Below, piece by piece: positions 5,421 to 57,525 of a DNA stretch of 64,000 bases. The stretch is from Planctomycetota bacterium (GTDB taxonomy: Bacteria; Planctomycetota; E44-bin39), in NCBI GenBank assembly GCA_004376375.1, contig SOJX01000096.1:20557-84556 (forward strand), in the 5' to 3' direction. Both the position numbers and the translations under genes were made by a program. Position 1 is the first letter of the stretch; each line of letters opens with the position of its first letter. A model generated the notes under the pieces. It was not told where the DNA came from. It ran no database searches and was given only the letters and a program-made list of their open reading frames with translations.

Positions 5421-6569
5421 CTACCGTTTCCTTTTCATGAGAGGCGCTACCTTCCGCGCAAGTTCTTCGGCAACCCGCTCGTTGCCTTTCGGCATCAGAT
5501 GGTCCATATCGATGGTCTCTTCCGAGAGCACGAATTCCAGAAAATCGGTCACATCTTCAACCCCCTCCTCACGCAGTACTGACTTTATTATTTCATGTGC
5601 GTCCCGGATTTTTTCACCTTCATGCCGGGGGTCGCGTTTGATTAACTCCGCGGCATACCTGATAAAGTCGGCGTTGGCGTAGGAGACGTACCAGAACACG
5701 GGAGGTTTCTTCTCCTTCACGAAGCGAACCATTTTCCTGAGGTATTCAATCTGCTCTCTCTCTTCGCTGACATGCATATATTTATCGCTTAGGTACTTCA
5801 TCAAATAGAAAATGTCTCCGATATTGTGGCCGCCCGCATTCTTCCTGTGAATCCAGTTCCGGTGCTTTTTCGTCTCTTTTCCGCCCAGGCGGCCCAGGAA
5901 ATCCCTGCCCGCATCACTGTCAAGCCAGAAACGATACATGTTGCCGGATGCATACAGCCGCCAGCATCTCTTGAGCAGATGTGACGACCGCAGAGGCGCG
6001 CGCCTGAAAAACGACTGCGGCGCGAGCTCATCGAGTCCGGCCTCCCTATGCAGCCGGGTCACTTCAATCGCCACGGCGGGATAAAGCGAAGGCAACCTGG
6101 AAAATAATTCGGTGGCGTTTGAAAACATGCGGTGGCTCAACTGAAGAACAAATAAATCAGCGGAATAATCCGCAAACGCGGTCAGAAGCAGGAGCTTGTC
6201 GGCAGGCCCGCCTGCAACCTCGGAAAGGTTCACGACCTCGACGTTTTCAAGGCCGGGATATTTTCTAAGGGCAGTCTCGAGCTGAGGCGGCAGAATGTAA
6301 CGCGTCCGCATGTTGATTCCCTGGCCGGTGGAATCGCCGAGAAAAAAAACACGGGGATAATCCACGTTCTTGGGAAGGTGGGCAAGGCACCACTCTGTAT
6401 ATGCGGAACTGAAAACGGGGTTTCTGCGAAGCTCTTTCGGAAAGAAGACTCCGGGTGCGGCCCAGAGCAGCACGTCGGCAAGAATAAACCAGAAGAGAAT
6501 AAATAGGGCCAGGCGTATCACTCGGGGGTAGCTGAGTTTGCTTATATATTTTCTTACCGTCAAAATCAT
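5421..6569 (-). CDS. Membrane-anchored putative SGNH/GDSL-type hydrolase
   Basis: ATG at 6569 preceded by GGGAG. N-terminal transmembrane helix. FFLGDSTGQG block (GDS motif) shortly after the anchor. The ORF table extends to 6632 through the upstream repeat. Confidence 0.4.
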   Translation of the reverse strand: MILTVRKYISKLSYPRVIRLALFILFWFILADVLLWAAPGVFFPKELRRNPVFSSAYTEWCLAHLPKNVDYPRVFFLGDSTGQGINMRTRYILPPQLETALRKYPGLENVEVVNLSEVAGGPADKLLLLTAFADYSADLFVLQLSHRMFSNATELFSRLPSLYPAVAIEVTRLHREAGLDELAPQSFFRRAPLRSSHLLKRCWRLYASGNMYRFWLDSDAGRDFLGRLGGKETKKHRNWIHRKNAGGHNIGDIFYLMKYLSDKYMHVSEEREQIEYLRKMVRFVKEKKPPVFWYVSYANADFIRYAAELIKRDPRHEGEKIRDAHEIIKSVLREEGVEDVTDFLEFVLSEETIDMDHLMPKGNERVAEELARKVAPLMKRKR

Positions 6570-6578
6570 CTCCCTGGG

Positions 6579-6648
6579 ATTAGTGGTTAGTCGTTTGTCA
6601 ATTTCTAACCAATAAGCACTAACGACTAACAACTAACCACTAACAACT
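6579..6648. repeat. Intergenic palindrome, 16-bp perfect inverted repeat (TTAGTGGTTAGTCGTT / AACGACTAACCACTAA) plus AACTAAC heptad repeats
   Basis: Direct reading of the sequence. Member of the heptad-repeat hairpin family described in the findings. Confidence 0.7.
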
Positions 6649-6771
6649 AACAACAATATAATGTCGGGATAAGACGCGTTTTACAAGTAAATTTCCTTGA
6701 CTTGTATTTACGACGTGGAATAGGATGCGCCAATCATCCATAAGAGTATAATTCAATCCGGGGGAAACGTT

Positions 6772-7188
6772 ATGAAAAATCCCGCATCACTCTCCATAGC
6801 TGCTGGTATTCTGTTTCTTTCCTGTTCTCTCGCGGCTTTTACCGGTTGCCCGAACATATCCGGCTCAGGCGGAGTGGAAGGCCCGACGCACATGCTCAAA
6901 GAAGACGCGTGCATATACCTGTACAAAGGCGACCAGTGGCCCCATAACCGGCAGTTAACAAATTATGTTGCCAGACAGTGCCGTGGCAATCCGCTCGCAT
7001 TCGAAGGTGAAGCAAATGTCGCAGTGTTGAAAAAGGGAGCCGAAGTGCAGGACCGCGGACCAATGCCTCTACAGATTCCCGGCCCTGAAGGTGCAAAAAC
7101 GGTGTCTGTCCGATACGTGTGCATTGAATCCGGCGAATTGAAAGGCGCGCTGGGCTGGATTTCAGACGAATACCTTGAAAAAAAATAA
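6772..7188 (+). CDS. Small lipoprotein, hypothetical
   Basis: Signal peptide with lipobox LFLSCSLAAFTGC. 138 aa. Confidence 0.5.
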   Translation: MKNPASLSIAAGILFLSCSLAAFTGCPNISGSGGVEGPTHMLKEDACIYLYKGDQWPHNRQLTNYVARQCRGNPLAFEGEANVAVLKKGAEVQDRGPMPLQIPGPEGAKTVSVRYVCIESGELKGALGWISDEYLEKK

Positions 7189-11864: not shown

Positions 11865-11954
11865 GGTATTCAGCGGCTCGAAAACAGGTGGAATATTATC
11901 AGAACCGACACGCTAACACACCGTTACATCGAATTCAAGCGAAAATTCATCGCC

Positions 11955-12135
11955 GGAAGCACCACGCCGGAAGGCGTGGTGAACGCCCGGAAGCACCACG
12001 CCGGAAGGCGTGGTGAACGGCAAGGGATCGGGGACATGAAGAATCCGGGACATGTACTTGTTACGTGTCCCGGGATTTTTTCCACGGGGACATGTATCCG
12101 ATTTCGCCTGCGAAATCAGTACGTGTCCCCGGAAG
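11955..12135. repeat. Cluster of GC-rich palindromic repeat units upstream of the island
   Basis: Tandem ggaagcaccacgccggaaggcgtggtgaacg x2, then gggacatgta...tacgtgtccc palindromes. Related to the units at 13130-13250. Confidence 0.6.
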
Positions 12136-12150
12136 GCCGAATAGTAAATA

Positions 12151-12185
12151 TCGCATAAAACAATATTAAATTAGGAACCGTCCCC
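12151..12185. repeat. Left terminal inverted repeat of the AT-rich island
   Basis: atcgcataaa...aaattaggaaccgtcccc. Its reverse complement occurs at 12953-12987. Confidence 0.75.
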
Positions 12186-12408
12186 AGAGATTCAAGTTTA
12201 CATGCGGGATGTAACGATTATAGAAGTATAAACGTTGCGCACTCGAACAATATCATGCACGGATCGATTTGGTTTATAATGATCACGGTGCGAATAGGTG
12301 TCTGTAATGCACGCGCGATTTGCTCTTTTGATAAGAGGTGGTATACTATGGAAAATTTTATGGACACCCTCCTTGAAACACTCGGTTATAGGTATCCCAT
12401 ATTTCTTC

Positions 12409-16129: not shown

Positions 16130-17017
16130 ATGCAACGCACACTAGTTTTATTTATCGCGGCCCTGGCCATCACTGTTATGGCCCTGGACCTTCCCGCATA
16201 TTGCTGAGGTGGCGGAGGAGGATCGCGACCGCCGGCGCGGCCGCCAGCAAGACCGCCGACTCCACCTCCGGCACCGCCTCCGCGTCCGCCGAGTACGCCA
16301 CCGCCGAGCACACCGAGACCGCCGAGTACGCCACCGCCGAGCACGCCGACTCCGCCGAGGACGCCGACTCCGCCTCCAAGGCTGTCGACGCCTATTCCGC
16401 CAAGAGCTCCTGTAACGCTCGGCTGGCCGGAAGCGAAGCCGGTAGCGAACCCGACGCCGAAGAACGAGCCGACCATTACCGGCCGCGGCATCTTCGGTAA
16501 AAAGGACGGCAAAGCGGGAAAAGCGGAAAAATCGGCGAACAAGGTTATCGTCAAAAAGAAGGTGAAAATAACCTGCTTCGACGACTTCGACGCGCTGAAG
16601 GGCAAGGAAGAGAACAAGCCGGTCGTCATTTTCGTGTACTGGCCCGACAGGACCGACGACGCCGGCCGCACCTCAAAGCTCTATGCAAACTGCCAGAAGA
16701 TGATTGAAGTCCTTGCCAACGCGGACGTGCAATCCGCGCTGAGACAGTGTCAGTGCTACAAAGTGAATTTCCAGGGGCTTGACAAATCGCGCCGCAAACG
16801 TTACGGCGTGAAATCCGTACCGACGCTGCTCTTCATCGACGCAACCGGCAAGGTTCTCAAGAGACTTACATCACCGCGGATAAAACCCGCGAGCCTGGTT
16901 CGGCTGATACTGACCGTCGTCAAGAAGTCGGACAAGAACATGGAGAAGCTCGAGAAGAAGCGCGAAAGAGCCGCGGAAAAGGCAGCGGAAAAGGCAGCGG
17001 AAAAGGAGCGATCTTAG
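16130..17017 (+). CDS. Trx-fold paralog 1 with in-frame TGA at 16205-16207
   Basis: GGAGGGAGG RBS. MQRTLVLFIAALAITVMALDLPAYC-[TGA]-GGGGGSRPPARPP... No in-frame ATG for 357 nt after the TGA, yet that stretch is conserved at protein level with the other copies. In frame with table ORF 16562..17017. Confidence 0.55.
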
Positions 17018-17261: not shown

Positions 17262-18074
17262 ATGAAAAAGCTGCCAATAATATTTATTGCTGCGCTGGCC
17301 ATCACCGTAATGGCCCTGGACCTTCCCGCATACTGCTGAGGCGGCGGAGGAGGATCGCGGCCGCCGGCGCGGCCGCCTGCAAGACCGCCGACACCAAGAC
17401 CGCCATCAAATCCCGGTGGTAACCCGGGTGGCAGTAATCCGGGTGGTGGAGGCACGCCAATGGTACCTACGGGTTCTAAACCGAGTATCAATTGGCCGGA
17501 AGCCAAACCAGTCGCCAACCCGACTCCCAAATCCGAGCCCACGACCACGGGCAGAGGGATTCTCGGGAAAAAAGACGACAAAACTGACGAGAAATCCGGC
17601 TCCAAAGTCATCGTCACCAAGAAGCCGAAAATTACCTGCTTCGACGACTTTGACGCGCTGAAGGGCAAGGAAGAGAACAAGCCAGTTGCCATTTTCGTGT
17701 ACTGGCCGGACCGGACAAACTCAAAAGGCCAGACGTCGAAGGCGTACCAGAACAGTCAGAAGATGATTGACCTCCTTGCCAAGTCTGCGGTTCAGTCGGC
17801 CTTCCGCGAGCTTAACTGCTACAAGGTGAACTACAAGTCGCTCGACAAGTCGCGCCTCAAACGCTACGGCGTGAGAGGCGCGCCGACGCTGCTCTTCATC
17901 GACGCGACCGGCAAGGTTCTCAAGAGAATCACCTCTTCGCGGATCAAGGCTGCAAGTCTTGTGAAACTGATCAAGACCGTTGTCAAGAAATCAGACAAGA
18001 ACCTTAAAAGGCTTCAGAAGAAGCGCGAAAAGGCAGAAGAGAAAAAAGCAAAAGAGGAAGAAGAGAAGAAATAA
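17262..18074 (+). CDS. Trx-fold paralog 2 with in-frame TGA at 17337-17339
   Basis: AAGGAGA RBS. MKKLPIIFIAALAITVMALDLPAYC-[TGA]-GGGGGSRPPARPP... In frame with table ORF 17460..18074. Confidence 0.55.
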
Positions 18075-20309: not shown

Positions 20310-21401
20310 TCAATAGCGCAGCAGGGCTGCGATATTGCCGACTTCGGTCAGGCCCGGAATCGGGTCGACGAAGTCCGCTTCCGCACCGGATGATGCGAGC
20401 AACTCGATTATCTCGTTGACAAGGTCGATTTTAAAAATTGACTGCGAGCCGCATTTGGAACAGGCCGCATGCGCTCCCTCGTCCAGATGATCGCAGTCGC
20501 GGCAGCGGATGCCGTCTATCCGAACATCGCGGCTGACGACAACCTTGCTGACCCGCCCCGCTTTCGCCGCGTCGAGCACGTCCGCGGCGCCGACGGTTGC
20601 CTTGCCTTTACGACAGTATTCGTTCCTGATCCGCTCCCAGAGCCTTTCTTCGGAGCGGCGTTCCTCGTCGAAGTACAGGTCGAATATTTCCCGGTTGATA
20701 CAATGCTCGCCTTCGGACAGGTTCATGGCCTTTTCGCCGACAAGTTTCCTGGCGAGATGGGCCGGAAGCACCCGCTTGATTTCAGCCAGCGTTTCCCTCG
20801 ACCCGGCCATAAGGATGCGGCGGAAGCTCTCGCTCCGGTCCAGTTCCTTAAGCCTGTCGACGATATCCTTGGCGTAATGATGAAGCTGTTTGTCGCGCCT
20901 GCGCTCGTAGCGCTGCTGCGACCAGCCGCCTTTCCGCACGTGGTTTTTTATATTCCCCCTGACTCGCTCCTCGGACTCGGCCTTCGCGGACACGACCAGA
21001 TAAATGCGGGCGGATTTATTGTCGGCGACGACCACCGCGAAATTCTCGTATTCGTCCTGCAGTTCGGCCAGCGGACGGATATAGGGCGAGGAATCAACGA
21101 TTAATAAATCGGGCATATCTACTTCAATCGGAAAGGCCTTGAAATAATCCAGCGCCCAGCAGGCGAAAATGCATATCCCGCCGGACTCGACCGGATTCTT
21201 CTTCAGGTATTTTTCCACAAGCTCGATGTTCTCATCGAAGTATTCCGCTTCGTCCCTGTTATCCCGTAAAAGAGAGCGCGTGTTCCCGATGCGCTTCCCC
21301 AGCGATTCCAGCGCTCCGGCATCGGAAAGGTAGAGGCTCAGAAACGCGCGGTCCGGCGCCGTTACTTTCGCCAATTCGCGCAGGTTGATTTTGTCGAACA
21401 T
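20310..21401 (-). CDS. Hypothetical protein, tentatively eRF1/Pelota-like (bacterial aeRF1-type), with a C-terminal C4 zinc ribbon
   Basis: 363 aa. Central KGGWSQQRYERRRD loop reminiscent of the eRF1/Dom34 central-domain loop. C-terminal CRDCDH...CSKCGS zinc ribbon. Assignment is by motif impression only. Confidence 0.3.
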   Translation of the reverse strand: MFDKINLRELAKVTAPDRAFLSLYLSDAGALESLGKRIGNTRSLLRDNRDEAEYFDENIELVEKYLKKNPVESGGICIFACWALDYFKAFPIEVDMPDLLIVDSSPYIRPLAELQDEYENFAVVVADNKSARIYLVVSAKAESEERVRGNIKNHVRKGGWSQQRYERRRDKQLHHYAKDIVDRLKELDRSESFRRILMAGSRETLAEIKRVLPAHLARKLVGEKAMNLSEGEHCINREIFDLYFDEERRSEERLWERIRNEYCRKGKATVGAADVLDAAKAGRVSKVVVSRDVRIDGIRCRDCDHLDEGAHAACSKCGSQSIFKIDLVNEIIELLASSGAEADFVDPIPGLTEVGNIAALLRY

Positions 21402-21464
21402 GATATGACCGGCCTCCTATTGCTCTGTTACGCCTGATGTGATAAGTAGGCCGTCAATGCGAGG

Positions 21465-21590
21465 AGCGAAGCGACGTAGCAATCTCAGACTAGGTTACAG
21501 GTTACAGGTTACAGGTATCAGAATATATTTTTTACCTGTTACCTGTCACCTGTTACCTGATTTGTCGGCAGCTTTGCTACCTCCTCGCAA
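21465..21590. repeat. Nested intergenic palindrome built on GGTTACA heptad repeats
   Basis: Inner arms CAGGTTACAGGTTACAGGTA / TACCTGTTACCTGTCACCTGTTACCTG. Outer arms ttgcgaggag...gtagcaa / ttgctacctcctcgcaa. Confidence 0.7.
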
Positions 21591-21634
21591 TGACCTGTAC
21601 ATATCATTTGAGGTGTAACGGAGTACTAGTTATC

Positions 21635-22219
21635 TTATCTCCTCAGTTCTTTCCATGTCTTTCCGCCGTTGGCGCGGATGAAATCTGCAATCGCTTCGTG
21701 CCGCAATAACTGCGCCCAGTCAAGGGGCGCACATCCGAATTCGTCTTTTGTATTGATGTCGGCCTTCATTCTTACCAGCGACTCAACAAGGTCCTTGTTT
21801 TTTTCCCGTATCGCCCAGAACAGCGGCGTCCAGTCGTCTTCATCTCTCGCGTCTATTTCCGCGCCTTTGTCGATCAGCAGCATCGCAACGTCATTCCATT
21901 TATTCCTTGCGGCCAGGTGCAGGGGGAAGCTCTTAAACATGCTCTTTGGCACCAGGGTGTTGACATGTTCCCAGTGTTCTGCCAGGAATTCCGCTGCCTT
22001 CTCGCCGCCTTCCAGTTCCCCCGCCAGCACATCGAAGCCTTTCCTGCCTTTGCCGAGCAGCCAGCTGACGGATTTCACCCTCTCTTTCGCGTCATTGGAA
22101 TGCAGACAGGAGGCGTTCCACAATATTCTCACCGGCGTCCACAGCAGGCAGGTCGCTATCACGGCCGCGAAAAGCAGGACGACGAAGATAGTGAGCTTGA
22201 GAGGCAGCGAAAGCTTCAT
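21635..22219 (-). CDS. Ankyrin-repeat protein with N-terminal signal/anchor
   Basis: Three or four ankyrin repeats (LHLAARNKWNDVAMLLIDKGAEIDARDEDDWTPLFWAIREKNKDLVESLV...). The N-terminal 19 aa are nearly identical to those of the 19284..20276 gene. Confidence 0.65.
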   Translation of the reverse strand: MKLSLPLKLTIFVVLLFAAVIATCLLWTPVRILWNASCLHSNDAKERVKSVSWLLGKGRKGFDVLAGELEGGEKAAEFLAEHWEHVNTLVPKSMFKSFPLHLAARNKWNDVAMLLIDKGAEIDARDEDDWTPLFWAIREKNKDLVESLVRMKADINTKDEFGCAPLDWAQLLRHEAIADFIRANGGKTWKELRR

Positions 22220-23725: not shown

Positions 23726-24523
23726 ATGCAAAAACTGCTTACCACATTCCTGCTCGCTATGTGTGCAGTCGGATTTGCCTTGGACAATGTGGCCTATGCT
23801 GCCGGCGGCTGTTGAGGCGGCGGTGGCACTCCGCGGCCGCCGGCGCGGCCACCTACGACTCCAAGACCGCCTGCAGGAAATCCCGGGAACCCCGGTACTC
23901 CCAGTACGGGAACTCCCATTCAGCCTCGTACGCCCGCAGAACTCAGCTGGCCTGAGGCCAAACCCGTTGCCGAATCGACCCCTGAAGTTGAGCCCACAAC
24001 TACGGGCAAGGGAATTCTCGGTAAAAAGGACGACAAGGGCAAAACGGCTGAAGGGGAAAAATCCGGCAACAAGGTCGTCGTTAAAAAGCGAGAAAAACCC
24101 ACCTGCTTCGACGACTTCGACGCGCTGAAAGGGAAGGAAGAAAATAAACCTGTCCTCCTTTTCGTGTACTGGCCTGACATGAAGGATTCCAAAGGCCGCA
24201 CTTCGAAGGCCTACGAGAACTGCCGGAAGATGATTGAACTCCTTGCCAGGTCGTCGGTCCAGTCAGCCCTCGAAAAGATAGACTGTTACAAAGTCAACTA
24301 CAAGTCGCTCGACAAGGCGCGCCTCAAACGCTACGGCGTGAAAGGCACGCCGACGCTGATTTTCATCGACGCGACCGGCAAGGTGCTCAAGAGGATCACG
24401 TCTCCGCGGATAAAGCCGTCAAACCTTATCCGGTTGATTAAGACCATCGTCAAGAAATCGGACAGGAACCTGGAGAAGCTTCAGAAGAAGCGCGAGAAGG
24501 AAGAGGAAAAGCAGTCCAAGTAA
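23726..24523 (+). CDS. Trx-fold paralog 3 with in-frame TGA at 23813-23815
   Basis: MQKLLTTFLLAMCAVGFALDNVAYAAGGC-[TGA]-GGGGTPRPPARPP... In frame with table ORF 24164..24523. Confidence 0.55.
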
Positions 24524-25570: not shown

Positions 25571-25608
25571 TTAACTTCAGACTTTTAACTTTGAACTTTG
25601 AACTTCTG
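25571..25608. repeat. AACTTTG heptad tandem repeat between convergent genes
   Basis: ttaacttcagacttttaactttgaactttgaacttctg. Confidence 0.5.
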
Positions 25609-29235: not shown

Positions 29236-31368
<2,133 letters not shown>

Positions 31369-31871: not shown

Positions 31872-32582
31872 ATGCGCAAATCTCCAATCTTGGTCCTGGC
31901 AATAATCTTATCCGTTTCAGTAGCTTTCTCCATTAACTGCGGCGGCAGCGGCGGGGGAACGAAAATCGTCTACCCGAGCACGAACACCGGCACGGGCACG
32001 ACGGGAACCGGAACCGGCACAGATACCGGGACCGGCACGGGAACCGGAACGACAACTTCCACAAATACTCTCCGGGTAGAACTCGGTCCCAACAATCCCG
32101 GCGGAAAAATGACCTGGCAATTGCCGGACACGGGAACGTTCGACTGCTGCCTGCTTCAATTCAGGTTCGAGGCAATTGGCGGTAACGTCAGCGTTATCTC
32201 GATGGTGGTCACTGATACCGGAGACGGAAGCCTGACCAATGGAATCGCGATGAAATGTAACGTCTGGGAAGACATAGGCGACTGTGCGGGAAAGTGGGAC
32301 CCAAGCGACGTAAGGGTAGCAAACGACGTTGCCTGGGACGACACGCGAACAGTAACGATTACATTCACCACTCCTATTAAACTTGAAAACCTCGTACGAA
32401 GAACTTTTATTATCTGTTACAAGGTAATATGTCCCAATTATTCACTGGATCCTCTCTACTATCAGGCGGTAATCCCTGTTGATCAGATTGACGCCGTGGA
32501 AACAGGCGGGTCTCTGAAAGTACCAACCGATCCGCCTAGCGGCAACATAACCGGCCAGCAAACCTTATTTGCGCCCATTTGA
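31872..32582 (+). CDS. Paralogous smaller lipoprotein with a Gly-Thr linker and a C-terminal domain related to that of 29236..31368
   Basis: Lipobox [33 protein letters not shown] linker (DNA array 31984-32056). 236 aa. Confidence 0.55.
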   Translation: MRKSPILVLAIILSVSVAFSINCGGSGGGTKIVYPSTNTGTGTTGTGTGTDTGTGTGTGTTTSTNTLRVELGPNNPGGKMTWQLPDTGTFDCCLLQFRFEAIGGNVSVISMVVTDTGDGSLTNGIAMKCNVWEDIGDCAGKWDPSDVRVANDVAWDDTRTVTITFTTPIKLENLVRRTFIICYKVICPNYSLDPLYYQAVIPVDQIDAVETGGSLKVPTDPPSGNITGQQTLFAPI

Positions 32583-35571: not shown

Positions 35572-35788
35572 GTTGGCTGTTTCCCCCGGGCGTTATGCGG
35601 AATGCTTTACCCCCGTTAGTATATTCAACATCTGCGCGCCTGTCAAACCCTTACCGGCAAACATGGTGTTGTAAAATGAGATTCGATGTGTACAATAGAG
35701 CGGTCAGCTTTCAGCAATCAGCTTTCAACTATTTATTAATTATTGGCTGATCGCTGAATGCTGAGCGCTGAATGCTTGAATAAGGGCC

Positions 35789-36415: not shown

Positions 36416-36416
36416 T

Positions 36417-36506
36417 GGTCCCTTGGTCCCTCAGTCCATTGGTCTATTGGTCTATATATTATTCTTAATAAGACCAAGAGACCAAGGGGCCAAAGGACCA
36501 ATAGAC
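36417..36506. repeat. Intergenic palindrome built on TGGTCYM/ATTGGTC heptad-like repeats
   Basis: ggtcccttggtccctcagtccattggtctattggtct...agaccaagagaccaaggggccaaaggaccaatagacc. Confidence 0.65.
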
Positions 36507-36595
36507 CTGTTTGGATTTGTGTTGCGTTCGTGCCGGGCTCATGCTAGGATGACGTCGAATCTCAGGCGCATTTTGTTATCGGAAAGGAGAAGGTC

Positions 36596-37230: not shown

Positions 37231-37266
37231 AACCGAAGAACCGAACAACCGAACAACCGAATAACT
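37231..37266. repeat. (G/C)AACCGAA tandem repeat upstream of the 37270 gene
   Basis: aaccgaagaaccgaacaaccgaacaaccgaataac. Confidence 0.5.
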
Positions 37267-37269
37267 ATT

Positions 37270-37656
37270 ATGTTTCTAGCCTATCTCGGACTGACCGCCG
37301 TCATTATCCTCTGCACGCTCGCCGTCTGGGAAGCGCGCCGCAAGTTCGGCAACAGCGGAATCGAAGTTCCCATCATCGGGGCCATCGTATGGTTCCTCAT
37401 GACGGTTGGATTTCTCGTACACGCGGTCTCCATGCCGCCGGCGGTAAAGGAAAAGGAAGAACCCGTCAATATCCAGGAAAGAACACTGCCGAAGACGGAC
37501 CGCTCGGCAAATCCAAGAGGCGTTTTCCATCCTCCAAAAATGAAACGGCGGCCCGGTCGAAAGCCCCGGGGGGATGAGTTTGAAGAAGAGGACATGTTCG
37601 GCGGCGAGCCCGAAAATCTGTTTCCCCCGGGAGGGGAAAACAGATCCAACCGCTGA
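37270..37656 (+). CDS. Small membrane protein, hypothetical
   Basis: Two transmembrane helices then a basic/acidic tail. 128 aa. Confidence 0.4.
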   Translation: MFLAYLGLTAVIILCTLAVWEARRKFGNSGIEVPIIGAIVWFLMTVGFLVHAVSMPPAVKEKEEPVNIQERTLPKTDRSANPRGVFHPPKMKRRPGRKPRGDEFEEEDMFGGEPENLFPPGGENRSNR

Positions 37657-37840
37657 AGAAAGTATGAAGTATGAAGGCTGAAGTATGAATTAAGAATATT
37701 TATTTTATAATCCGTCCTTCATCTTTAAAGAACTCGCCGAGCAAACCGGTCTGGTTGCGCTCGGCGGCTAATTATTATATTATTAGCATATTCTTCTTTT
37801 CATCCTTCATACTTCATCCTTCATACTTTCTTCATACTTT
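37655..37840. repeat. Pair of inverted GTATGAA(G) heptad arrays flanking an AT-rich spacer
   Basis: gaagaaagtatgaagtatgaaggctgaagtatgaa... and ...tcatccttcatacttcatccttcatactttcttcatacttt. Confidence 0.65.
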
Positions 37841-37854
37841 TTCCAACAGCCCTG

Positions 37855-37883
37855 TTGACAGCAAGTTCTGCACATACTATAAT
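37855..37883 (+). promoter_or_regulatory. Perfect-consensus sigma70 promoter for parA (TTGACA-17-TATAAT)
   Basis: TTGACA at 37855-37860, 17-nt spacer, TATAAT at 37878-37883. Confidence 0.55.
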
Positions 37884-37948: not shown

Positions 37949-38881
37949 ATGCGCAAGATTGCAGTAATAAATCAAAAAGGCGGCGTCGGCAAAACAACTA
38001 CCGTCGTAAACCTCGCCGCGGCTCTGGCAAGAATGGGGCAGCGCGTCCTGGCCTTGGACATTGATCCCCAGGCAAACCTTTCGGTCCACCTGAACATCGA
38101 CGTTGCCACCGCCGAGCGAACTATATACGAAGTCCTGAGCGGAACATTTTCCCTCACCGACGTAATCCAGACTCTGCCCGACGAGGGATTCGATATGGTC
38201 TCATCGAACATCGACCTTGCCGGCGCGGAGATAGAGCTCGTCAGCCAGATGGGCCGCGAAACCATACTGCGGGACGCCGTGGATGCGCTTTGCAAATCGT
38301 CGCCCGATTATGATTTCCTGATTATAGACTGCCCGCCCTCGCTCGGTCTGCTCACGATCAACTCGCTCACGGCCGTACGCGAGCTTTTCATTCCGCTGCA
38401 GGTCCAGTTCTTCGCGCTGCAGGGCGTAACCAAGCTGCTGGAAATCGCAAACCTTGTCCGGAGCCGCCTGAACCCGGACCTTGAAATCACCGGCATCATT
38501 CCGCAAATGTTCGACCAGCGCACCAAGCTCTCCCATGAAGTGCTCGAGGAGATACATACCTTTTTCAAAAACACGGTTACAAACACCGTTGTGCGGTCGA
38601 ACATCCGGCTGGCGGAAGCGCCGTCGCACGGGAAGTCGATCTTTCGCCACGCCCCCTCCTCCTTCGGCGCGGCAGACTACCAGGCGCTGGCCGAGGAAGT
38701 CCTGAACATGGTTCCGCAGGAGAGAGTCTATCAGATGCCGGAGATACCCGAGCTCCCGCCGGAGCCGGCCGCTGAACAGACGCAGAAATCCGAGGAGCCG
38801 CCCGCCGAGGGGCCGCCCTCCGAGGAGCCGAAAGACAAGCAGCTTGAGGTCGAAGAAACCTTCATGAAGCATGAAGTATGA
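37949..38881 (+). CDS. ParA/Soj-family P-loop ATPase with a Pro/Glu-rich C-terminal extension
   Basis: KGGVGKTT deviant Walker A. ParA blocks throughout. About 60-aa acidic/Pro-rich tail. TGA stop at 38879-38881. Confidence 0.85.
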   Translation: MRKIAVINQKGGVGKTTTVVNLAAALARMGQRVLALDIDPQANLSVHLNIDVATAERTIYEVLSGTFSLTDVIQTLPDEGFDMVSSNIDLAGAEIELVSQMGRETILRDAVDALCKSSPDYDFLIIDCPPSLGLLTINSLTAVRELFIPLQVQFFALQGVTKLLEIANLVRSRLNPDLEITGIIPQMFDQRTKLSHEVLEEIHTFFKNTVTNTVVRSNIRLAEAPSHGKSIFRHAPSSFGAADYQALAEEVLNMVPQERVYQMPEIPELPPEPAAEQTQKSEEPPAEGPPSEEPKDKQLEVEETFMKHEV

Positions 38882-38924
38882 AGAACAAAAAATAAAATCT
38901 CAGCCTTCATACTTCATGCTTCAT
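38863..38924. repeat. Perfect 21-bp inverted repeat (CATGAAGCATGAAGTATGAAG / CTTCATACTTCATGCTTCATG) overlapping the parA stop
   Basis: Direct reading. A-rich loop. Followed by CCTTATC tandem repeats. Confidence 0.7.
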
Positions 38925-38967
38925 CCTTACTCCTTATCCCTTATCCTGTTATGCACTCGTTTTTCGC

Positions 38968-38995
38968 TTGACAGCCCTGAAGGCCGTGATAGAAT
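38968..38995 (+). promoter_or_regulatory. Near-consensus sigma70 promoter (TTGACA-16-TAGAAT) for the 39038 gene
   Basis: TTGACA at 38968-38973, TAGAAT at 38990-38995. Confidence 0.45.
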
Positions 38996-40309: not shown

Positions 40310-40347
40310 AACCGGCGCACCTTGAAAAAGGCGCGCCGGTTCTTTTA
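40310..40347 (+). terminator. Rho-independent terminator after the 39038..40279 gene
   Basis: aaccggcgc-accttgaaaaag-gcgccggtt followed by CTTTT. Confidence 0.55.
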
Positions 40348-40374
40348 TAAGGCTTGAGACTTGAGGCCTGAGAA

Positions 40375-40476
40375 TTTTCGATTTACGATTTTCGATTGTC
40401 GATTTCGGATCGAATTTAACCGCTGAGCCGCAGTGAAATATTTGAACCGAAGAACCGAACAACTGAAGAACCGAAG
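40375..40476. repeat. TTTCGAT heptad array followed by a GAACCGAA array
   Basis: ttttcgatttacgattttcgattgtcgatttcggatcgaa ... gaaccgaagaaccgaacaactgaagaaccgaag. Confidence 0.6.
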
Positions 40477-43273: not shown

Positions 43274-43356
43274 CAGGTTTCAGGCGTCAGGTTTTAGGTA
43301 TCAGGTTTTAGGTGTTAGGTTATTATTTTCTTATGCCTGAAACCTGATACCTATTA
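43274..43356. repeat. Intergenic palindrome built on CAGGTTT/AGGTWTC heptad-like repeats
   Basis: caggtttcaggcgtcaggttttaggtatcaggttttaggtgttagg...gcctgaaacctgatacct. Confidence 0.65.
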
Positions 43357-43364
43357 AATACCAT

Positions 43365-43386
43365 GCGCCCCTCCCGGGGCGCATTT
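43365..43386 (+). terminator. Rho-independent terminator (GCGCCCC-TCCC-GGGGCGC followed by ATTTT)
   Basis: Perfect 7-bp GC stem followed by a T-run. Confidence 0.55.
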
Positions 43387-44280: not shown

Positions 44281-44385
44281 TATTTAGTGCTTCTTACTTG
44301 GTTCTTGGTTCTTGGTTCTTGGTTCTTGGTTCTTGGTACTTGGTACTTGGTACTTGGTACTTGGTACTTGGTACTTCTTATCACG
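44281..44385. repeat. Tandem heptad array (GGTTCTT)x5 then (GGTACTT)x6 ending GGTACTTCTTA
   Basis: Direct reading. Generates spurious ORFs in three frames. Confidence 0.8.
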
Positions 44386-44388
44386 CAA

Positions 44389-44484
44389 TTATTTGCCGCG
44401 TTTCTTGCGACGACGACGACGGGCGCGGCGCTTTTTCGAGCCGATCTTACGGCGCCCGCGGCCCGTTTTCTTTCCACTGGCCAT
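44389..44484 (-). CDS. 31-aa arginine/lysine-rich small protein (MASGKKTGRGRRKIGSKKRRARRRRRKKRGK)
   Basis: ATG at 44484 preceded by GGGAGA at the right distance. TAA at 44389. Too short for the ORF table. Flanked on both sides by heptad arrays. Confidence 0.4.
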   Translation of the reverse strand: MASGKKTGRGRRKIGSKKRRARRRRRKKRGK

Positions 44485-44559: not shown

Positions 44560-44650
44560 TGAGTACCGAGTATCGAGTTACGAGTTTCGAGTAAAAACAT
44601 AATTGCGGAATTCTTCACTCGGTACTCGGTACTCGGTACTCGATACTTCT
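44560..44650. repeat. Inverted heptad arrays (CGAGTAN)n / (CGGTACT)n ending GGTACTTCTTA-G
   Basis: gagtaccgagtatcgagttacgagtttcgagt...actcggtactcggtactcggtactcgatacttcttag. Its TTA is the complement of the TAA stop of the permease gene. Confidence 0.75.
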
Positions 44651-45531
44651 TAGAACCTGCCGAGCGCGCGGGGCGGGCGGACCGCAATATTGAAAACGCA
44701 CAGGACGACAATCGTCAGGACGTAGGGCAGCATGCGCCACACTTCCTCCGGCACCCCGAAACCGGTAAGCGCGTAACCGGCTTCATAAGCTGCGCCGATG
44801 AGAAGACACGCAGCCGCCGTTCTGACGGGCCGCCAGTTTCCCATTATCAGCGCGGCAATCGCGATAAAACCACGGCCGTGCGTTATCGTAGTCATAAACT
44901 GGTTCAGGTAGCCTATGGAAAGAAAAGCGCCTCCAAGCCCGCAGAGAATCCCGGAACACAGGAGCGCGAAATACCTGACCCGCCTTGGAGAAACGCCGGT
45001 GGCAACGAGCGCGGACGGGTCTTCCCCGGCCGCGCGGAGGTTGAGCCCGAAAACGGTCCGCCTGAGAATAAACCACACAACGATAACCGCGACAAACGCC
45101 ACCGGGACAAGAATCGAAATCTCCCGGCGGAAATCTCCGAATGCAATCGGAATGGAAAACAGCTTTTCGACCGGCGGCGAATTCTGGCTTATGTTCCATA
45201 TCCGCTTGACGAGAAAAGCGCAAATCCCCGCCGCGAGAAGATTCATGACTATTCCGGCCACGATCTGGTCGGCGCGGAGGTCCAGGCACAGGAACGCGTA
45301 AACAAGCGCGAAAACGGCGGCGGCGATGACTGCGCCGATCAGACCTGCAAGCGGCGAGCCGGTAACGTAGGTAACCAGCACGGCCCCAAACGCGCCAACC
45401 AGCATGAACCCCTCGAGCGCAAGGTTTATCACGCCCGCCCGCTCCGAGCACAGCCCGCCGAGCGCGGCGAAAATAAGCGGCGTCGCCCCCGCGAGCGCGC
45501 CGAGTATCAGCCCGAGAATTACCGCGGTCAT
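44650..45531 (-). CDS. ABC transporter permease (BMP-family nucleoside transporter, second permease)
   Basis: ATG at 45531 overlaps the upstream stop (ATGA). About 9 transmembrane helices. The table ORF is extended to 45771. Confidence 0.7.
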   Translation of the reverse strand: MTAVILGLILGALAGATPLIFAALGGLCSERAGVINLALEGFMLVGAFGAVLVTYVTGSPLAGLIGAVIAAAVFALVYAFLCLDLRADQIVAGIVMNLLAAGICAFLVKRIWNISQNSPPVEKLFSIPIAFGDFRREISILVPVAFVAVIVVWFILRRTVFGLNLRAAGEDPSALVATGVSPRRVRYFALLCSGILCGLGGAFLSIGYLNQFMTTITHGRGFIAIAALIMGNWRPVRTAAACLLIGAAYEAGYALTGFGVPEEVWRMLPYVLTIVVLCVFNIAVRPPRALGRF

Positions 45532-57418: not shown

Positions 57419-57520
57419 GGTCCAGAATACCCGGTACCCGGTACTCGGTACTCGGGACTCGGTACTCGGTACTCGGTACTCGGTACTCGGTACTCGGTAC
57501 TCGGTACTCGGTACTTCTTA
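57419..57520. repeat. (CGGTACT)x11 tandem heptad array ending GGTACTTCTTA
   Basis: Same unit and same terminal motif as the arrays at 44281-44385 and 44560-44650. Confidence 0.8.
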
Positions 57521-57525
57521 ACTGC

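Follow-up and report, generated by a model that had tools for sequence, protein, structure and literature searches.

Intergenic arrays of 7-nucleotide units, many arranged as palindromes, in an uncultured planctomycete lineage

A composite palindrome between an ankyrin gene and a baeRF gene

We analyzed a 64,000-nucleotide (nt) stretch of DNA, termed the window, from a Planctomycetota bacterium of the GTDB lineage E44-bin39 (GenBank assembly GCA_004376375.1, contig SOJX01000096.1, positions 20,557 to 84,556), whose intergenic spacers carry tandem arrays of 7-nt units (heptamer arrays), often arranged as inverted pairs. The focal element is a palindrome that fills the spacer between an ankyrin gene and a baeRF gene (Table 1). 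The baeRF protein of the window has an identical counterpart in a metagenome-assembled genome (MAG) labeled "Planctomycetota bacterium" at NCBI, and the best relatives of the host TopA are Brocadiales-like Planctomycetota MAGs with 55% identity; the host is not a heterocystous cyanobacterium.

The left half of the focal spacer aligned to the reverse complement of its right half with a score of 81, against 20 ± 4 for shuffled sequences, and the spacer had a z of −7.4 for folding as single-stranded DNA. The baeRF leader is present twice, in inverted orientation, as the outer arms of the palindrome, and the distal copy (21596-21628) matches the single-copy leader of a relative, L176, at 31 of 33 positions. 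These alignments show that the palindrome includes an inverted duplicate of the adjacent unique sequence. Inside, the two array arms flank a loop of 15 nt with 13% GC and differ systematically from each other, with one T-T mismatch per unit; each arm is homogenised separately. An initial annotation, made from the letters of the window, had described this hairpin as nested inside a second inverted repeat, and we indeed found such a repeat around the arms, together with further pairing between 21473-21482 and 21574-21583.

The center of the focal hairpin also contains promoter-like sites. At 21501-21549, the heptads provide −35-like GTGACA or GTTACA and the loop provides a −10-like TATATT, with a spacing of 16 to 17 nt on both strands, giving three promoter-like sites for 0.5 expected. 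The loops of the other hairpins fell below the threshold of the scan, and we do not generalize promoters inside hairpins from the focal one.

Period 7 is enriched in the intergenic DNA of the window

Arrays were detected with Tandem Repeats Finder and with our own scan, applied uniformly across the window (at least three copies, at least 80% identity). Our scan yielded 12 arrays of period 7 and 2 of period 8, distributed over 13 loci and containing 3 to 12.6 copies each. Together the two methods recovered the heptamer arrays at all loci listed in the initial annotation; an inverted pair at 35700-35727 / 35746-35780 was missing from that list of at least nine regions. First-order Markov shuffling of the window (30 shuffles) gave 0.07 period-7 arrays per shuffled window, compared with the 12 observed. 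The uniform scan found no arrays with periods of 4, 5, 9, 10, or 11 in the window, and arrays with periods of 3 and 6 were coding, with one exception. Seven is therefore special among nontriplet periods, as had been proposed, and this also holds in 1.29 Mb of other genomes (see below).

Intergenic DNA represents 16.3% of the window, according to gene calls taken from public assemblies that have these same proteins, and it holds all 14 period-7/8 arrays, as the initial annotation had anticipated. The sole coding overlap is that of the left arm at 38863-38883 (21 nt), which covers the parA stop codon and the last 19 nt of parA. The stem at this position is perfect, as previously noted, but we count 20 pairs (38864-38883 / 38905-38924) and not 21. 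The density of period-7 arrays in the window amounts to 188 per Mb. The arrays of the window share with long simple sequence repeats (LSSRs) the tandem 5- to 11-nt units beyond chance, the enrichment of 7 among nontriplet periods, and the noncoding location.

The arrays vary in period, unit, and arrangement more than first described. Most have a period of 7, but the period is 8 at 36416-36507, 37231-37265, and 40444-40476. Units do differ between loci, with more than 10 in the 64 kb, but four unit families recur: GTATGAA (four arrays), GAACCGAA (two arrays), GGTACTY/GGTTCTT (four arrays), and CAGGTTW (at 21492 and 43274). Inverted pairs around an AT-rich loop, presented as the usual arrangement, occur at 8 loci, whereas 5 loci have direct arrays only. 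The inverted pairs have stems of 20 to 35 bp, with single-strand fold z values of −4 to −12 relative to dinucleotide shuffles, and loops of 13 to 24 nt with 6 to 29% GC, compared with an intergenic mean of 46%. Scans of the window for Rfam families (at gathering thresholds) and for tRNAs gave no matches. Cores of GGT or AAGU shared among units were marginal by a hand estimate once non-independent families were merged, and we make no claim on them.

We then looked into the distribution of the arrays relative to genes. Arrays are present in 12 of the 48 spacers (6/31 codirectional, 4/8 convergent, and 2/9 divergent), and between 35.5 and 44.7 kb they occupy 9 of 11 consecutive spacers.

Array lengths change by whole units between near-identical genomes

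The comparison of strains proposed in the initial annotation revealed length differences. In L082, which is 98% identical to the window over 7.4 kb, the focal 246-nt segment differs only by a 7-nt insertion, GACAGGT, corresponding to one extra unit in the right arm; in an arm of 28 nt, this is a credible polymorphism. Assembly GCA_030588815.1 (L085), from the same strain, has no mismatch over 16.5 kb, and its sole difference there is 14 additional nt (two units) inside the array at 57428, possibly an assembly effect. Another 21.7 kb of this assembly, spanning nine array loci, matches the window without any difference. Arrays thus change by whole units between near-identical genomes, as slippage predicts, and these exact 7- or 14-nt changes support the slipped-strand expansion suggested earlier. 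We rejected the ends of Logan contigs as evidence of polymorphism (inside arrays in L084, L086, L088, L172, and L173; within the outer inverted repeat in L083, 25 nt past the focal arm), because these contigs break off after some three perfect units, which is what a short-k assembler looping on a tandem repeat would give (the type of assembler being assumed).

Among more distant relatives, L176 (90% amino acid [aa] identity for baeRF) keeps the array that follows the glycosyltransferase stop codon, with an equal copy number and concerted unit changes, and has a different array, AACTCGA ×3.9, upstream of baeRF. L177 (79% aa identity) has no array in its baeRF spacer and none in 21 kb. Since one relative has a different array and the other none, these comparisons indicate that arrays turn over quickly and that repeat richness is lineage-specific.

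L176 also has an 860-nt gene-free spacer (6283-7141) full of GC-rich perfect hairpins (e.g., GGGGCAAGGCATGCCTTGCCCC and GCCCGGGATTGCTCCCGGGC), together with a weak CGRGTCY ×4 array.

Heptamer palindromes recur at the atpG-atpD junction of Acidobacteriota

For a comparison with other genomes, we used 80 TopA loci covering 1.29 Mb. Period-7 arrays reached 75 per Mb in the loci from Acidobacteriota/Thermoanaerobaculia, 22 per Mb in those from Planctomycetota, and 6 per Mb in those from other phyla. Generic ParA-bearing metagenome loci contained 11 per Mb; the ParA relatives had at most 52% identity and no orthologous spacers, and we used these loci solely to obtain a general baseline for the period spectrum. 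In the TopA loci, 7 was the commonest period, with 55 arrays, compared with 3 for period 4, 6 for period 5, 40 for period 6, 11 for period 8, and 1 for period 10. An inverted partner lay within 200 nt of 37 of the 55 period-7 arrays but of only 4 of the 40 period-6 arrays. The search of related genomes suggested in the initial annotation found heptamer palindromes to be frequent in Thermoanaerobaculia.

The spacer between atpG and atpD was particularly informative. Among 25 Acidobacteriota loci, 11 have a heptamer-array hairpin between the atpG stop and the atpD start (L022, L024, L030, L031, L036, L041, L055, L061, L066, L072, and L076), one (L067) has 7-nt repeats that form a short stem, and the other 13 have plain spacers of 15 to 76 nt, mostly 15 to 37 nt. 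The right arm of the hairpins extends into the Shine-Dalgarno region. Their units change from genome to genome (GAACGAT, CAACGGN, GAGAACN, GACAACN, and CAACGAC), and all are variants of the ...CAACGGAGAAC... found next to the ribosome-binding site in array-free genomes. The architecture recurs while the sequence changes, and this resemblance is direct evidence of seeding from local sequence. Array units are thereby shown to derive from local sequence.

Folding and transcription signals around the arrays

The main alternative to a mutational origin is that paired arrays are selected cis-regulatory RNA hairpins, acting as terminators, in RNA stability, or as RNase III sites, with copy number tuning expression. 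The leader of hmw1 in Haemophilus influenzae offers a model: RNase III cleaves a long hairpin there, one arm of which consists of the heptamer repeat, and transcription, folding, and cleavage are all needed for expression and for copy-number change (PMC12721329). The stable 20- to 35-bp stems described above would suit such a role, as would the U-rich tract that follows 3 of the 8 hairpins in the sense orientation (36416, 37660-37839, and 44561), the array conserved after the glycosyltransferase stop in L176, and the recurrence of the same architecture with differing sequences at 12 of the 25 Acidobacteriota atpG-atpD junctions (counting the short stem of L067). The hairpins are predicted from sequence, and a place in a transcribed leader is plausible for that at 35700-35780.

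Several observations speak against this explanation. The more stable fold belonged to the antisense strand in 11 of 16 cases, so that folding does not favor the sense strand and the mRNA shows no enrichment of G-U pairs. Strand-specific folding, tried as a sign of selection on the mRNA strand, thus gave no signal or, if anything, one in the opposite direction. Loops of 13 to 24 nt that are rich in AT are poor for RNA hairpins and fit an origin at the DNA level better than an optimized RNA hairpin. Inverted pairs also occur in divergent spacers (6577-6654 and, partly, 35700-35780). Relatives with 79 to 90% aa identity lack the focal hairpin or have another array in its place, and about half of the Acidobacteriota genomes manage with an atpG-atpD spacer of 15 to 37 nt.

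Consensus sigma-70 promoters occur in the window, as do canonical intrinsic terminators, two of which (40310-40341 and 43363-43384) lie directly beside arrays. This argues that the arrays are not simply the host's version of a terminator. In a consensus terminator scan, none of the array-pair hairpins scored, and the only match within an array was a short stem in the 38863 arm. The reason is that their stems of 20 to 35 bp and loops of 13 to 24 nt depart from the canonical short GC-rich stem that has a loop of 3 to 8 nt and is directly followed by a U-tract. Taken together, selection for RNA hairpins seems to us a possible but rather unlikely explanation of the paired arrays.

As for promoters, the initial annotation had envisaged that changes in copy number would alter their spacing, with phase variation as a possible outcome. 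No array in the window lies between a recognizable −35 and −10, and those near the two best promoters (37855-37883 before parA, matching the consensus at 12 of 12 positions, and 38968-38995 ahead of the gene after parA, at 11 of 12) end 15 to 20 nt upstream of the −35, so that copy number would leave promoter spacing unaltered.

Origin of the arrays

We favor the view that the arrays probably belong to the known type of long SSR and are made in place, with a lineage-specific mutational bias as the main driver, and that they are unusually dense in this lineage. We propose that a short local sequence would be duplicated head to tail by replication slippage, in the one-unit steps observed between genomes, and that concerted turnover inside each arm would keep its units similar. 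Fold-back or template-switch replication could then generate palindromes in which the array of one arm is mirrored in the other. The focal structure and that at 37660-37839 both resemble inverted duplications of DNA in which heptad arrays were already present or arose later. The lineage-specific bias would set the density of arrays, and, since steps of 7 nt disrupt reading frames, arrays would survive in spacers only. When transcribed, paired arrays would form the 20- to 35-bp stems, and some of these probably act as 3'-end or intercistronic hairpins (terminators, RNA stabilizers, or RNase III sites).

The flanks support formation in place. Homology among arrays with the same unit ends at the array edge or within 4 to 7 nt of it, which favors an in-place origin over mobile spread. 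This result, together with the different units and their local derivation, bears out the earlier idea of a common process acting in place rather than one spreading mobile sequence. The other process considered in the initial annotation, a site-specific system that seeds heptad arrays, found no support: no recombinase, transposase, or reverse transcriptase gene is annotated in the 64-kb window.

Some of our data fit an origin by mutational bias less well. The preference for 7 has a conjectural explanation only, the published idea of a polymerase footprint. Arrays often touch stop codons (36416, 37660, 44647, and 25606) or a start codon (37265), and about half of the 25 Acidobacteriota genomes have a hairpin at one and the same operon junction. 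L176 retains the array that follows the glycosyltransferase stop while its flank beyond has diverged, which hints at selection. Unit families recur with the same variant order or with the same TAAGAAGTAYC junction, which would be unexpected under purely independent seeding. The five direct-only loci are unable to form hairpins alone. Finally, the 14-nt difference in the 88-nt array at 57428 could be an assembly error, which leaves one clean polymorphism.

A different function was suggested by plasmid pSM19035, in which the ribbon-helix-helix protein omega binds heptad arrays upstream of the promoters of delta (a ParA protein) and omega. The arrays of the window could likewise be operators or centromere-like sites for a heptad-binding protein, especially the four GTATGAA arrays around the single parA gene, whose direct and inverted heptads end just upstream of the two strongest promoters of the region. 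We regard this as improbable, as a Pfam search of all the neighbors of parA (E ≤ 0.05) returned a BRCT domain only and no ribbon-helix-helix, ParB, or ParG-like protein; next to parA are genes for a membrane-like protein of 128 aa and a BRCT-domain protein of 413 aa. Moreover, more than 10 units in 64 kb would require as many specific binders, the same architecture is found at unrelated genes and in other phyla, and array lengths change between strains.

Very improbable, in our opinion, is the spread of dispersed mobile palindromes by a transposase, as repetitive extragenic palindromes (REPs) are spread by REP-associated tyrosine transposases (RAYTs): several units do recur at separate loci, the arrays at 37231-37265 and 40444-40476 agree at 33 of 37 positions with an identical order of unit variants, and the TAAGAAGTAYC junction is common to three arrays, but the homology is one-sided and ends within 4 to 7 nt of the arrays, most loci differ in their units, the array sequences inspected have neither conserved termini nor a GTAG or CGTC tag, the window has no annotated transposase or RAYT gene, and the array units of Acidobacteriota come from local sequence.

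Relation to known repeats

The initial annotation did not recognize a described class of repeats, but one exists. Heptanucleotide repeats have been reported as the most abundant class of LSSRs in most prokaryotic genomes, with slippage as the explanation and with the proposal that the polymerase holds a stretch of 7 nt (Mrázek et al. 2007, as cited in PMC4679880 and PMC4692102). The repeat class is therefore already known, and what is new is the lineage and the palindromic arrangement; in the literature searched, we came across no report on heptamer palindromes with locus-specific units from Planctomycetota or Acidobacteriota. Like other prokaryotic heptanucleotide LSSRs, the arrays consist of tandem 7-nt units enriched over other periods of 5 to 11 nt, are intergenic, have a patchy phylogeny with many units per genome, and have slippage as the proposed mechanism. 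Unlike them, they are mostly inverted pairs with AT-rich loops within larger palindromes, and their host belongs to an uncultured planctomycete lineage, outside the listed repeat-rich taxa (Burkholderia, cyanobacteria, actinobacteria, and Xanthomonas).

Tandem heptamers are documented in several other bacteria. The short tandemly repeated repetitive (STRR) sequences of the heterocystous cyanobacteria Calothrix and Nostoc and the GGGAATC repeats of Xanthomonas are spacer heptamers near gene starts and stops that vary in length and sequence among close relatives, and some of the Xanthomonas arrays are inverted pairs (PMC4692102). However, they reuse few units at dozens of loci, and many are G-rich and quadruplex prone, whereas the window has more than 10 units, none of them G-rich, and a hairpin arrangement at the majority of loci. 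Heptamer arrays are also found in Chloroflexus (PMC6749651), in the recF/recO leaders of Nostoc, and in marine Beggiatoaceae, where short TAACTGA arrays in spacers often lie a few nt from a start codon (PMC4679880), as does the array at 37231-37265. The Beggiatoaceae differ in using one unit genome-wide, almost always direct, which is proposed to bind a translational regulator (PMC4679880). The ATCTTTC repeats of H. influenzae hmw1/hmw2 resemble our arrays in being heptamer SSRs of a noncoding leader that form the arm of a long hairpin and vary in unit steps (PMC12721329, PMC8262952). Their partner arm is a nonrepetitive G-rich stretch, and their cleavage by RNase III, effect on expression, and dependence on transcription have been established by experiment. 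REPs and bacterial interspersed mosaic elements are intergenic hairpins as well, often located right behind a stop codon and proposed to act in termination and mRNA stability; each REP family has one conserved sequence of 20 to 40 nt with a GTAG or CGTC tag and is spread by RAYT transposases (PMC3733652), in contrast to the tandem units, locus-dependent sequence, and absence of such tags here.

A broader hypothesis, which we judge unlikely, is that heptad palindromes form a cross-phylum class (Planctomycetota and Acidobacteriota so far) of self-renewing intergenic hairpins, whose place and architecture would be kept while 7-nt slippage of local sequence, for instance that beside the ribosome-binding site at atpG-atpD, rewrites the sequence, providing a control of RNA processing or translation that is tunable by copy number. 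If so, the fixed 7-nt step would reflect a measurable mechanistic constant of the replication or transcription machinery. Why bacteria favor 7-nt tandem repeats is a question that has stood since at least 2007, and the published studies of function that we found concern few loci, such as hmw of H. influenzae and recF/recO of Nostoc. The lineage of the window offers about 190 arrays per Mb, with many units and with paired arms that record evolution within and between arms, and the Acidobacteriota atpG-atpD junction is a natural series of hairpin gain, loss, and rewriting. Together, they could separate mutational bias from selection and test a role in RNase III processing or termination. The arrays also matter for the quality of MAGs, as they break k-mer assemblies and can be mis-sized.

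Array loci and other features of the window

Table 1. Repeat features of the window (positions counted from its first letter; z, single-strand fold; ×, copies)
Position	Feature	Context	z
6577-6654	Inverted pair, GRTTAGT ×3 (left arm 6577-6599) / ACTAACN ×5-7 (6605-6654)	Divergent spacer 6564-6771	−4.1
21417-21629	Composite imperfect palindrome, ~215 nt (focal)	Fills spacer between ankyrin gene (stop 21635) and baeRF gene (start 21401), both minus strand	
21453-21466 / 21581-21594	Outer inverted repeat, 14 nt, 93% complementary	Around focal arms	
21492-21517	AGGTTAC ×3.6	Focal left arm	
21533-21559	TTACCTG/TCACCTG ×4	Focal right arm	
25571-25606	Direct array, AACTTYR ×5	Convergent spacer, 3 nt past stop of minus-strand glycosyltransferase gene	
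35700-35780	Inverted pair, CAGCWWT ×4 (35700-35727) / GCTGARY ×5 (35746-35780), AT-rich loop	Promoter-like site 35669-35696 upstream; HD-domain gene (35795) downstream	
36416-36507	Period-8 inverted pair, TGGTCYNT ×4.6 (36416-36452) / AGRNCCAA ×4.6 (36471-36507)	Begins at base right after HD gene stop; U-rich tract behind	−6.7
37231-37265	Period-8 direct array, AACCGAAS ×4.4	Ends 4 nt short of ATG at 37270	
37660-37839	AAGTATG ×4.3 (37660-37689) and TTCATMC ×6 (37799-37839), outer stem of three-way palindrome	Promoter 37855-37883, then parA, downstream	−11.9
38863-38947	CATGAAG ×3 (38863-38883) / CTTCATR ×3.4 (from 38905), then CCTTAYY ×3.8	Across parA stop; promoter 38968-38995 downstream	−9.8
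40355-40476	Three direct arrays: CTTGAGR ×3, ATTTTCG ×4.6, and GAACCGAA ×4.1 (array spans 40355-40404 and 40444-40476)	One convergent spacer	
43274-43356	YAGGTNT ×7 (43274-43321) and complementary arm AAACCTG... (43335-43356)		−6.5
44295-44376	Direct array, (GGTTCTT)5(GGTACTT)6, 11.7 copies		
44561-44647	Inverted pair, GAGTAYC ×4.7 (44561-44593) / ACTCGGT ×4.4 (44617-44647)	Touches ABC-permease gene stop (44650); U-rich tract next in sense orientation	−6.9 and −7.5
57428-57515	Direct array, GGTACYC ×12.6	Fills 88 nt of 112-nt convergent spacer	

Two elements occupy the center of the three-way palindrome at 37660-37839: an inverted repeat rich in AT and, at about 37734-37768, a GC-rich hairpin resembling a terminator. 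In the GGTACTY family, three arrays share the end junction GGTA(C/T)TTCTTA (TAAGAAGTAYC on the other strand) at 44370-44380, 44640-44652, and 57510-57521; these junctions sit near the stops of minus-strand genes, with no homology beyond them. Between the array at 44295-44376 and the hairpin at 44561-44647 lies an uncalled open reading frame of 31 codons, MASGKKTGRGRRKIGSKKRRARRRRRKKRGK (44389-44484, minus strand), which is extremely basic and may encode a real small protein.

The focal spacer separates an unusual gene pair. In eukaryotic ANKZF1, a VLRF1 domain and ankyrin repeats occur together in one protein. Both in the window (20310-22219, minus strand) and in the 79% relative L177 (8268-11092), a release-factor gene of the baeRF10/VLRF1-like (Vms1/ANKZF1-type) kind lies directly downstream of an ankyrin-repeat gene, and this pair echoes the ANKZF1 combination of domains.

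Other repeats of the window are of different kinds. A perfect tandem duplication of a 34-nt unit (11953-12019; 2.0 copies, 100% identity) lies in the 544-nt spacer 11865-12408, and the unit itself holds a hairpin (CACCACGCC GGAA GGCGTGGTG). Coding repeats of the GGAACCGGCACT type, with periods of 6, 18, 24, and 42, occur at 29341-29515 and 32001-32050, near the start of the 29116-31368 gene. The NCBI assembly ends here and has 7 small indels and 15 mismatches relative to the window, so that the public assembly is broken or uncertain there. Lastly, three stretches that span small thioredoxin-like genes (16418-16985, 17493-18030, and 23942-24514) are paralogous, with about 75% nucleotide identity, and represent a local gene family.

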